Assembly (NCBI GenBank): GCA_041305305.1
Contig: JBFYLR010000019.1
Location: 1-27,700, forward strand
Reading direction: 5' to 3'
Source: Nanobdellota archaeon
GTDB lineage: Archaea > Nanobdellota > Nanobdellia > Pacearchaeales > GW2011-AR1
DNA length: 27,700 nt
This document shows positions 21,371 through 23,434 of the stretch, in pieces. A program made the translations under genes and the position numbers. The notes beneath the pieces are model-generated. The model worked only from the letters and a program-made list of their open reading frames with translations. It did no database searches and was not told the DNA's origin. The number at the start of each line of letters is the position of its first letter. Within the stretch, counting starts at the first letter, position 1.

Positions 21371-23434
21371 TTAATCTAATCTTCTGTAGAAAACATATAT
21401 TATCGTTATTGCTAACAACGCTATGGCAAAGTTGAACCTCCCAAAGAAGGGCATGTTCAGCTCCATAAGCCCACATGGGACATCTTCAACAGTTCCATCT
21501 TGGCATTCAGAGTCAACAACATCTGTGCACTGCTCCGCGGTGCTTGGAGCAATTGGAACAATCTCTGCGCTTATTGTGACAGTTTTAGTTCCGCTTTCAT
21601 CATCACATTCGGACTCATCGGATACTGTCTTTGTGCACCTGTAACTGCAGTCTCCCTGTTGTGATGCGCATGATATCTTGCACGCACTATTCTCCCATAT
21701 ACATTCGCATGCTCTTCCAATTATATACCCTGGGTCGCTCAATACTACTCCCGGAGCATAATTCTTGCATGTTGGCTCTGAAGTATAATCAGAGCATTTC
21801 AGCAGGCTTGGTCCAGAAGTGCATCCAGTAGTATTCCAGGTGCAATCAGCATAGCATCTCAATGTTCCTCCTGTGAATCCCAGTCCTATCGTAGTGCAGT
21901 TATTCCCTCCGAGGTTTAATTTATCGCACTTTTCTGTTCCTTCAATAATGCTATTCCCGCAGGTAGCTGTTGAAGTGCCCGTTAGGATTAATGCACTGCT
22001 TTTTGCAACTATGGATTTGTTTGCTTCAAGTGTTACATTGAAGTAATATGTTCCAGATATCGCATTTGCATTCCATTCAAGAACAGTTTTATTGTTTGTG
22101 ACAGTTGCATTAAAGACTGCGACTGTGGCATTCGATGAATTGTAAATTGTAAAGTTTACTATCTCTCCCTGCGAGCAGTTTATTGCTGTCGCGTTCATTT
22201 TTACGCTTCCTTCCCCGAATATGATACTGGTCTGGTTCCATTTTGCCAGATTCAGCACACAGCAGTTCTTTGTTCCGGCAATGCTTCTGGTGTTCCCGCA
22301 TCCATCTGTCTGAGTTACATTCACAACCGTGCAATAATTTGAAAGGTCTGGAGTCCAGGCAGGAGTGCACGCATTGCATACATTGTTTGAACATCCATAT
22401 GGACAGAGCGTTCTTGCAAGAACTCCGCAGGTTAATCCACCGACAACTATTGAATTACATGTTCCCAGGGTTGTGCTGTTAACACATGAAATCGAACCTA
22501 TTACACACTGATTTGAACAGCATGCCTGAGTTTCTGAATCTGCTCCTGAACATGCAGCCCCTCCGCATTGCGGGGTAGGATTTGTGCATGTCCTTGTTCT
22601 TGTCTGCAAATTATTTGTGCATGTGCTCCAGGCGCTCCAGGCGCTCCATCCTCCATTCAAGGTAGGCTTCGTTCCATATCTGTCTCTTTCTGTGTTGCAG
22701 TTGCTTGTCTGATGAACATAAACATAATTGCAATAATTTGCAAGGTCGGGCGTCCATGTACTCGGAGTGCAACAATCTCCCCTGTAGCATACTTGTCCTG
22801 CTGCGGTGCATTGAGCTAAATCGGTCCATTTCGCGCAGTCTCCTCCAATACCAGCAGGCGAGCCATCATATATTCTAGTGCACTGCCTTCCCTGAGGGTA
22901 AACTGTTCCTGTTTTGCATTCTCTTAATCCTATATTGTTGCAGTTGCTATAGCACGCGCAAGTCCAGGTGTATTTACTATAACTGCTCCAACTCCCGCAC
23001 CCCCAGCACCCTGTTGATGAACGGCATGACATTGACAAACTAGAACATTGGCTGCCAGTTACTCTCTGGAACCCTGAAGGACAGACGCATGTGCAGGTAT
23101 ATCCTGATTCAGTCCTTGTGACGATAGATGCTGAAGTAGCGGTTCCGCAGCATGCATGGGTTATCATGCTGCTTCCAGAACTATCGCTGTCACCGCATGA
23201 TCTTGTCTCGCTCGCTACTCCGCTGGCAACTGCTACAAGGTAACCTCTAAGGCAAGGCGCACCATAACTCGTGCATATTGCCGTTCCCTGATAGCTTGAA
23301 CTGCTTCTTGCATATACCCATCCCCCTCTGCTTGCGCAATCGGCATACATATCCAATGCGCCCACAACCCCGGAGAGAACAATCATCAATAGCATTCCAG
23401 AAATAACTGCAACAATCACCCCTCTCTTCTTCAT
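21371..23434 (-). CDS. Cys-rich adhesin-like surface protein with TSP1 repeat, duplicated Cys module, Ig-like domain and C-terminal TM
   Basis: MKKRG-hydrophobic signal; TSP1 motif [12 protein letters not shown]...[21 protein letters not shown]; CGN...E.CD module; C-terminal MPFFG-TM-RR. Confidence 0.85.
   Translation of the reverse strand: [687 protein letters not shown]
22625..22648 (-). repeat. 9-nt tandem repeat encoding WSA-WSA-WS
   Basis: The plus strand reads GCTCCAGGC GCTCCAGGC GCTCCA. Confidence 0.7.

Follow-up and report, generated by a model that had tools for sequence, protein, structure and literature searches.

A contig of a Pacearchaeota-like DPANN archaeon (JBFYLR010000019.1 of assembly GCA_041305305.1, positions 1 to 27,700; this whole stretch of 27,700 nucleotides is hereafter called the window) encodes, between the genes for ribosomal protein L15 and SecY, a predicted cysteine-rich surface protein that carries a thrombospondin type-1 repeat (TSR). 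We consider this repeat to be a small module of a native DPANN surface protein, probably drawn from a module pool shared among prokaryotes and serving in cell contact, and assign a rough probability of 0.6 to this reading. TSRs are textbook eukaryotic adhesion modules, found for instance in thrombospondin, ADAMTS, complement, UNC5, and the malaria proteins TRAP/CSP, and a first-pass annotation of the window, made from the letters alone, had described the repeat as eukaryote-style, rare in prokaryotes, and possibly acquired by horizontal transfer. Here, an unambiguous TSR is physically tied to an archaeal ribosomal-protein operon, orthologues included, and its subtype is common in the Candidate Phyla Radiation (CPR), in DPANN, and in predatory bacteria. 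It thereby points to a specific protein that may belong to the machinery by which ultra-small episymbionts attach, and reopens the origin of the TSR fold and the direction of its movement between the domains of life. The gene itself is no mechanistic surprise, being another modular surface protein.

Identification and predicted fold of the repeat

The repeat is encoded at positions 22517-22660 of the reverse strand, which translate to residues (aa) 259-306 of a 687-aa open reading frame (ORF) at 21371..23434 (-). Short ORFs overlapping it in other frames (22568-22819 on the forward strand and 22110-22394 on the reverse strand) found no support, and the long ORF has full-length homologues. In phmmer searches against PDB sequences, the top matches were TSR2/3 of thrombospondin-1 (TSP-1; 3r6b, 1lsl, 7yyk; E 1.5e-16 to 5.6e-16), followed by the TSRs of UNC5, complement C6-C9, ADAMTS13, and properdin, and an excised segment of 61 aa scored 28.8 bits against PF00090 (gathering score 21.6, E 1.5e-6). 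A Pfam scan of the full-length 687-aa protein gave zero matches, PF00090 included, most likely as an effect of the composition-bias filter in a protein with 9% Cys. Since the excised domain passes the PF00090 gathering score, this null was discarded as evidence against a TSR, and it implies that counts of such domains in Cys-rich proteins of prokaryotes are probably too low. NCBIfam returned sub-threshold noise only for the full protein (T9SS tail, ISAon1, Heimdall-CTERM).

Every motif named in the first-pass annotation is present, i.e., WxxWxxW (W263, W266, W269), RxRxC (R279, R281, C284), and NPxPxxGGxxCxG, and the phmmer alignment sets W263/W266/W269 and R279/R281 in register with WSHWSPW and RIR of TSP-1 TSR2. 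An AlphaFold2 (AF2) model of aa 252-315 (64 residues), computed from an input alignment of 56 TSRs (A3), reached a mean predicted local distance difference test (pLDDT) score of 88, with values ≥ 90 at 47 of the 64 residues. Its regular strands are formed by QTRTR and ETQAC and are preceded by an irregular segment that bears the Trp residues. When this model was compared with the PDB by Foldseek, all of the 50 best matches were TSRs, among them 1LSL with a root-mean-square deviation (rmsd) of 1.3 Å over 53 columns (TMq 0.71) and 3R6B with 1.6 Å over 55 columns, the query-normalised TM-score ranging from 0.71 to 0.75 across the two. The Trp/Arg ladder is known here by residue register and backbone superposition alone. 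Profile search, PDB phmmer, and predicted fold agree, and with these sequence and model data there is very little doubt that the segment is a genuine TSR, as had been claimed, with the three-strand fold predicted to be kept. It shares with TSR2/TSR3 of thrombospondin-1 (1LSL, 3R6B, 7YYK) the WxxWxxW of the first strand, the RxR of the second, and the NPxPxxGGxxCxG turn (Foldseek rmsd 1.3-1.7 Å, 44-45% identity), but it stands as a single copy instead of in a tandem array, and in an archaeal host.

Variant cysteine pattern

In the phmmer alignment, the A-B loop of the window repeat is four residues shorter than that of TSP-1 and the second Cys of CSxTCG is gone; an additional Cys follows NPTPQ (NPxPxCGG) and the domain terminates in CC. 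There are six Cys in total, yet C2 is absent and the canonical six-cysteine pattern is not kept. Group-1 TSRs such as 1LSL are closed by the disulfides C1-C5, C2-C6, and C3-C4, and with an extra Cys, a terminal CC, and no second loop Cys, at least one disulfide must be wired differently in the archaeal domain. The loss of CSxTCG also entails the loss of the O-fucosylation consensus CxxS/TCxxG (POFUT2).

Cys patterns and indels were compared in 686 parsed TSR units (253 eukaryotic, 113 bacterial, 13 archaeal, and a rest that includes metagenomic units). The pattern of the window repeat (short loop, no loop Cys, PxPxC) occurred in none of the 253 eukaryotic units. It was shared by 3 archaeal units (the window TSR itself and its two orthologues), 2 bacterial units, and 6 metagenomic units, with CPR and Bdellovibrionota-like copies among the carriers outside DPANN. 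A short loop without the loop Cys, regardless of the rest, characterizes 9 bacterial and 31 metagenomic units but no eukaryotic one, and the extra Cys of PxPxC is present in 10/253 eukaryotic, 36/113 bacterial, and 11/13 archaeal units. Judged by these features, the window repeat is filed as a variant, i.e., a prokaryotic short-loop TSR with an extra Cys. The description as eukaryote-style thus finds no support, considering the missing CSxTCG, a Cys pattern seen in 0/253 eukaryotic units, and nearest relatives that are prokaryotic in 93-96% of bootstraps (see below).

The same residues bear on the possibility that the repeat is eukaryote-like in its chemistry, i.e., C-mannosylated or O-fucosylated and binding sulfated glycans in the manner of TRAP/CSP or thrombospondin. 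For this speaks that WxxWxxW and the Arg ladder are intact; however, the O-fucosylation consensus is lost, the 20 window ORFs scanned contained no DPY19-like protein and gave no other match to GT-C enzymes, and a structural role suffices to explain the Trp motif. With 2 Arg, 1 Asp, and 1 Glu, the domain has a net charge of 0, and at the sequence level no BBxB or other basic cluster lies within or beside it, which leaves the earlier proposal of sulfated-glycan binding without a basic patch to act through. To our knowledge, C-mannosylation is not known in prokaryotes. We regard such a modified glycan binder as very improbable, and nothing in the window points to the eukaryotic host or niche that had been thought conceivable.

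Distribution and relationships of prokaryotic TSRs

The species representatives of GTDB were scanned using a 7-sequence TSR alignment and the patterns [VL][ND]GGWS[AN]WS and QTR[TIS]R[TS]CTN. This resulted in 77 confirmed loci, distributed over CPR/Patescibacteria (37), Gammaproteobacteria (10), archaea (7, all DPANN), Bdellovibrionota (4), Myxococcota (4), and Rickettsiales (2), the remaining ones being single loci from Poribacteria, Planctomycetales, Omnitrophota, and others. As two narrow patterns already yield 77 loci, and DPANN contigs contain TSRs in unrelated architectures, the domain can no longer be called rare in prokaryotes. Of the 77 loci (L048-L124), 54 belong to lineages whose members colonise, inhabit, or prey on other cells (CPR, DPANN, Bdellovibrionota, Myxococcota, Rickettsiales); as both the patterns and the MAG sampling are biased, this is no more than a lead.

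The TSR proteins of CPR and Bdellovibrionota (P0016, P0048, P0102, P0131, P0076, P0052; L051-L124) resemble the window protein in being secreted, Cys-rich, and modular and in having the short-loop and/or PxPxCGG variant, but they differ in their other modules (pilin-like leaders, PKD/Ig arrays, peptidase C1, peptidoglycan-binding domains) and in mostly carrying 2-5 tandem TSRs. The other DPANN TSR proteins (L049, L050, L095, L053, L086, L117) are likewise secreted, with 1-3 TSRs and mostly PxPxCGG, but have unrelated carriers, and most of them keep the canonical loop as CSxSCGGG. Archaeal neighbours, namely GatD (above cutoff), class-I ProRS, archaeal-type GluRS, and the endonuclease dU family, were found on these other DPANN contigs. 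Three of the genes (L049 3545-4528, L050 2555-3418, and L095 3503-4837) make up a separate DPANN family with an N-terminal hydrophobic anchor, 2-3 ISVDGxEMxLQxAIDxG repeats, 1-2 TSRs, and a Cys-rich tail; outside the TSR, this family and the window protein are unrelated.

Pairwise identity fails to separate eukaryotic from prokaryotic TSRs (63% for the best coral TSR, 61-63% for the best CPR copy), so that indels, Cys patterns, and bootstrapped neighbours had to be analyzed. The closest ungapped TSRs (67-75% identity) are found in CPR-like and Bacteriovoracaceae-like proteins, which were placed by comparing the remainder of each protein with labelled loci in BLAST: outside the TSR, the nearest proteins resemble CPR loci (E 1e-33 to 1e-68), and the pilin-leader neighbours a locus of Bacteriovoracaceae (E 1e-14 to 1e-20). 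In a pool of 455 candidate TSRs, 295 of which (65%) are eukaryotic, the nearest non-orthologous TSR was prokaryotic in 93% of 1000 column bootstraps, and in 96% once the diagnostic loop and the Cys columns had been removed. A viral scan gave 1 locus in 2.9 million viral contigs, and viruses are therefore no notable reservoir of this TSR subtype.

These data also bear on the alternative of a recent transfer of an animal (e.g., cnidarian) TSR into the archaeon, possibly as a sign of a eukaryotic host or niche. The top whole-protein scores of the first search did come from multi-TSR proteins of coral, mollusc, and echinoderm, and the best single coral TSR equals the best CPR copy in identity. Nevertheless, those high animal scores are sums over 8-17 repeats, none of the eukaryotic units shows the Cys pattern and short loop of the window TSR, which do exist in prokaryotic ones, the ungapped neighbours at 71-75% identity are CPR-like or Bdellovibrionota-like, and a eukaryotic nearest neighbour was obtained in just 4-7% of the bootstrap resamples. 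A recent animal source is hardly credible on these grounds, and sequence comparison indicates that the window TSR belongs to a large prokaryotic TSR branch and is no recent animal import.

In the searchable literature, type-1 TSRs were found described neither from archaea, DPANN included, nor from CPR. The archaeal 'thrombospondin' of two papers (PMC6461757, PMC7265257) refers to Ca-binding type-3 repeats, and TSP1 has been viewed as an animal domain handed to apicomplexans (PMC3417536). The domain family itself is known; apparently undescribed are its archaeal setting, the rewired Cys pattern, and a prokaryotic radiation of this size. The first-pass annotation had allowed that TSP1 might prove both widespread and already described in DPANN surface proteins; the former holds for the genomes, the latter does not for the searchable literature. 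A much broader proposal would be that type-1 TSRs constitute a large undescribed prokaryotic radiation, concentrated in lineages dwelling on or in other cells (CPR, DPANN, Bdellovibrionota, Myxococcota, Rickettsiales) and cassette-shuffled there between surface proteins for attachment to other cells, with which the eukaryotic TSR shares its origin or from which it derives, and that the window form is a third structural group. We hold this to be speculative and rather unlikely. If true, the eukaryotic TSR, usually seen as an animal or apicomplexan invention, would share its origin with, or stem from, a prokaryotic pool, and the short-loop form with rewired disulfides would add a third group to the known TSR structures.

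Genomic setting and orthologues

The surroundings of the gene are given by the following features:
20729..21265, forward strand: ribosomal protein L15 (PF00828), the same neighbour in L041, L047, and L126
23435..23485, no strand assigned: AT-rich divergent spacer of ~51 nt with a TATA-like CTTTAAAAAC, a candidate promoter
23465..24871, forward strand: SecY (PF00344, E 5.8e-61)

The window encodes PCNA, the primase small subunit, the L3-L4-L2-S19-L22-S3...L15 cluster, SecY, an EMC3/YidC-like insertase, proteasome alpha, and SBDS, and its SecY is 87-89% identical to those of metagenome-assembled genomes (MAGs) labelled Pacearchaeota, Woesearchaeota, or Nanoarchaeota. Gene content and SecY similarity place the host as a Pacearchaeota-like DPANN archaeon, and with archaeal genes on both flanks of the TSR gene, its location in an archaeon, as assumed before, is confirmed. 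The TSR gene runs antiparallel to its two neighbours, L15 and SecY, with gaps of ~50-105 nt on each side. Although the listed SecY ORF begins with TTG at 23465 (MFFSNNIM...), its relatives align from about residue 8, and the start is probably the ATG at 23486 (MDLK...), which leaves ~51 nt for two divergent promoters. The G+C content at third codon positions (GC3) of the TSR gene is 0.406, as compared with 0.30-0.46 in the neighbouring genes; its higher total GC stems from codon position 2 (0.57), i.e., from amino-acid composition.

Two orthologues share this setting. The genome with the closest SecY (L041, an NCBI MAG) encodes P0002, which is 49% identical and sits at the same L15/SecY junction in the same orientation; the ladder Trp/Arg are conserved in its TSR, with RIR, and a TSR-less paralogue, P0123, comes after it. 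In L047 (JGI), the orthologue is an open frame of 676 aa with 45% identity, likewise located and oriented, and its TSR (VDGVWSAYGAWSAC...QTKTKAC) has one Trp replaced by Tyr (W/Y/W) and both Arg by Lys. The gene call for this locus (L047 5918-7948) comprises the last 315 aa from an internal Val, which is an annotation artefact and no truncation. In L126, L15 is adjoined by P0128, in which another Cys-rich module replaces the central part of the protein that holds the TSR. The next-closest genome, L001, has L15 and SecY directly adjacent, the junction being empty.

With a native GC3, within the range of its neighbours, and orthologues of 45-50% identity that already carry the TSR, a recent horizontal acquisition finds no support. 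Likewise, one could suspect an assembly chimera or contamination, i.e., a eukaryotic or bacterial fragment misjoined into an archaeal contig, given that this is a metagenome-type assembly and that TSRs are far better known in eukaryotes. Such a misjoin is vanishingly improbable, as the gene is fitted tightly between L15 and SecY, recurs in the same place and orientation in the independent assemblies L041 and L047 (with a family member in L126), has a codon-position-3 composition like that of its neighbours, and, over the non-TSR 90% of the protein, has relatives solely in this archaeal group.

The L15/SecY junction was inspected in the window (21266-23485) and in L001, L003, L005, L011, L013, L021, L025, L029, L041, L047, and L126. 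Members of the Cys-rich surface-protein family occupy it in four relatives; other contents are an ABC transporter (L029), membrane proteins, and small uncharacterised proteins, all unrelated. Being empty, or filled with unrelated or family genes, the junction is a variable insertion spot of Pacearchaeota-like genomes, within a ribosomal operon that is conserved apart from it.

Architecture of the carrier protein and proposed role of the cassette

The protein was divided into modules as follows, all on the reverse strand:
21371..23434: whole gene, predicted type-I surface protein of 687 aa with 62 Cys (9.0%); full-length orthologues are P0002 and the L047 ORF
23354..23434: putative signal peptide, aa 1-27 (basic n-region, hydrophobic core, and small-residue c-region, read by eye)
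22793..23353: Cys-rich N-terminal head, aa 28-214 (187 aa, 20 Cys), near-orphan in HMMER and Pfam
22661..22792: first 'WTPD' module, aa 215-258, directly N-terminal of the TSR (alignment A5)
22517..22660: TSR, aa 259-306 (PF00090, PDB phmmer, AF2, Foldseek, Cys pattern)
22370..22516: Cys-rich linker or knot, aa 307-355, with 7 Cys, kept in P0002 and the L047 orthologue; AF2 confidence low
22259..22369: second 'WTPD' module, aa 356-392 (alignment A5), retained in the TSR-less paralogues P0123 and P0128
21980..22258: predicted beta-sandwich stalk, aa 393-485 (7-8 strands in AF2, pLDDT 62-73)
21800..21979: CGNxxIExGExCD...GGTLxCxxDCxFxTxxC repeat, aa 486-545, resembling myxobacterial Cys-rich repeats
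21470..21799: membrane-proximal Cys-rich beta domain, aa 546-655, with 12 Cys (AF2 strands, pLDDT 60-78)
21374..21469: C-terminal anchor or possible sorting signal, aa 656-687 (AF2 helix 662-686)

The signal peptide is kept in P0002, P0128, and P0132, and AF2 gives an N-terminal helix. An exhaustive HMMER search over 1.84 billion representatives returned 6 matches, three of which (P0002, P0128, P0132) cover the head, and the head domain had no Pfam match at E ≤ 10. In the stalk, 10 N-x-S/T sequons occur per 93 aa (aa 393-485), and this part is kept across P0121-P0123 and P0128. The CGNG-type repeat is 62-63% identical over ~50 aa to P0125 (PF11617) and P0126 (PF13948) in phmmer, although no Pfam match to a Myxococcus-type Cys-rich repeat was obtained on the C-terminal half of the window protein (E ≤ 10). 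The membrane-proximal beta domain is the best-conserved part of the family (A4) and is also present in P0124, whose N-terminus differs. The C-terminal segment, whose layout of a PFFG motif, a transmembrane helix, and a basic tail (RRLD or RRLN) agrees with that of archaeosortase-type sorting signals, is near-invariant in 7 family members; it scored 16.9-18.9 bits with Heimdall-CTERM (cutoff 24) and 11.7 bits with PEF-CTERM (cutoff 23), both sub-threshold. Its conservation in the seven homologues far exceeds the needs of a plain membrane anchor, and it may act as a sorting signal specific to DPANN. A location at the cell surface is very likely in view of the signal peptide, the 9% Cys, the 10 sequons within 93 aa, and the conserved C-terminal transmembrane segment.

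The WTPD module is a Cys module of ~38 aa with the consensus CTxTxWTPDxSxVCSGxxxTQTSNCGxTRxxxGTK, present in two copies in the window protein, repeated in P0129, P0130, and P0131, and arrayed in tandem in CPR-like proteins and in pilin-leader proteins of bacteria. Neither Pfam nor PDB contains a relative, and, as far as these sequence comparisons reach, the module is undescribed so far. We also considered whether it is a degenerate TSR, which was ruled out (hhalign probability 4.5%, no PDB relative). The module adjoining the window TSR is shared with bacterial proteins only, a further point against an animal source of the repeat. The CPR-like P0131 carries the WTPD+TSR pair three times, and the TSR-less paralogues P0123 and P0128 have a different Cys-rich module at the position of this pair on the same scaffold. 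WTPD+TSR is a swappable central cassette on a conserved surface-protein scaffold.

The protein would be exported by Sec via its N-terminal signal peptide, would form outside the cell a chain of small modules locked by disulfides between its 62 Cys, would be N-glycosylated chiefly on the beta-sandwich stalk, and would be retained by the conserved hydrophobic anchor at its C-terminus, which may be an archaeosortase-type sorting signal. From the membrane outward, the predicted order is the Cys-rich beta domain, the CGNG-type repeat, the glycosylated beta-sandwich, WTPD, the Cys knot, the TSR, WTPD, and the orphan head. The WTPD+TSR cassette may be an exchangeable rigid unit for binding or spacing that sets the target or the reach of the protein, and contact could be made with another cell or surface, most likely with the host of this presumably episymbiotic archaeon. 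The TSR itself would originate from a pool of extracellular modules common to CPR, DPANN, and predatory bacteria. For a secreted, membrane-anchored surface protein, a role in cell contact is reasonable; the cassette probably serves such contact, and for adhesion by the protein as a whole we put the chances slightly short of even.

A functional parallel may exist in apicomplexan TRAP/CSP, type-I anchored surface proteins with a single TSR that attach to another cell (PMC9019593, PMC3417536), as the window protein, too, is predicted to combine a single TSR with a type-I membrane anchor. The TSRs of TRAP/CSP, however, have basic heparan-sulfate-binding flanks, C-mannosylation, O-fucosylation, and cytoplasmic motor coupling, and they show no special relationship with the window TSR at the sequence level.

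The main rival to a contact module is that the TSR serves purely as a structural spacer, within a protein of the cell envelope or associated with the S-layer, and binds no cell. It would account for a TSR that is net neutral and has no basic cluster, for the relaxed ladder residues of the L047 orthologue (W to Y, R to K), for paralogues that work with another module at the TSR position, and for a family conservation that is strongest near the membrane rather than in the cassette. On the other hand, the same type of TSR is fused in bacteria to outward-acting parts (pilin-like leaders, peptidoglycan-binding domains, papain-like peptidases), and 54/77 TSR loci come from host-dependent or predatory lineages, although the sampling is biased. 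A conserved stalk bearing distal or central cassettes that vary is, moreover, typical of adhesins and receptor-binding proteins. A pure spacer is unlikely in our view, if a serious candidate.

Several points weigh against assigning the repeat to cell contact and to a common prokaryotic pool. Function was deduced from architecture alone, the episymbiosis of the host is assumed from its lineage, and the TSR could be purely structural; the Y-for-W and K-for-R exchanges in L047 argue against a strictly conserved binding face, and a neutral TSR without a basic patch gives no sign of the classic mode of binding heparin or sulfated glycans. For the full-length protein, the AF2 model is poor (pLDDT 42.8) and served for secondary structure alone, which leaves the domain order and a rod-like shape without structural support. 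Finally, the taxonomic spread is biased and incomplete, since the patterns were tuned to this subtype and the labels are those of MAGs.

Other surface and secreted proteins of the window

Two more genes on the reverse strand (2885-3898 and 4242-6104) code for proteins with a signal peptide, Cys-rich modules, and a transmembrane anchor and have no Pfam match. Both have ...SDGxCCxxGxC modules immediately before the anchor, and the 620-aa one has a Pro-rich cytoplasmic tail. At 919-1668 on the forward strand, a secreted homologue of staphylococcal nuclease carries a fused lamin-tail domain, a combination that fits nucleotide scavenging by an organism with a reduced genome.

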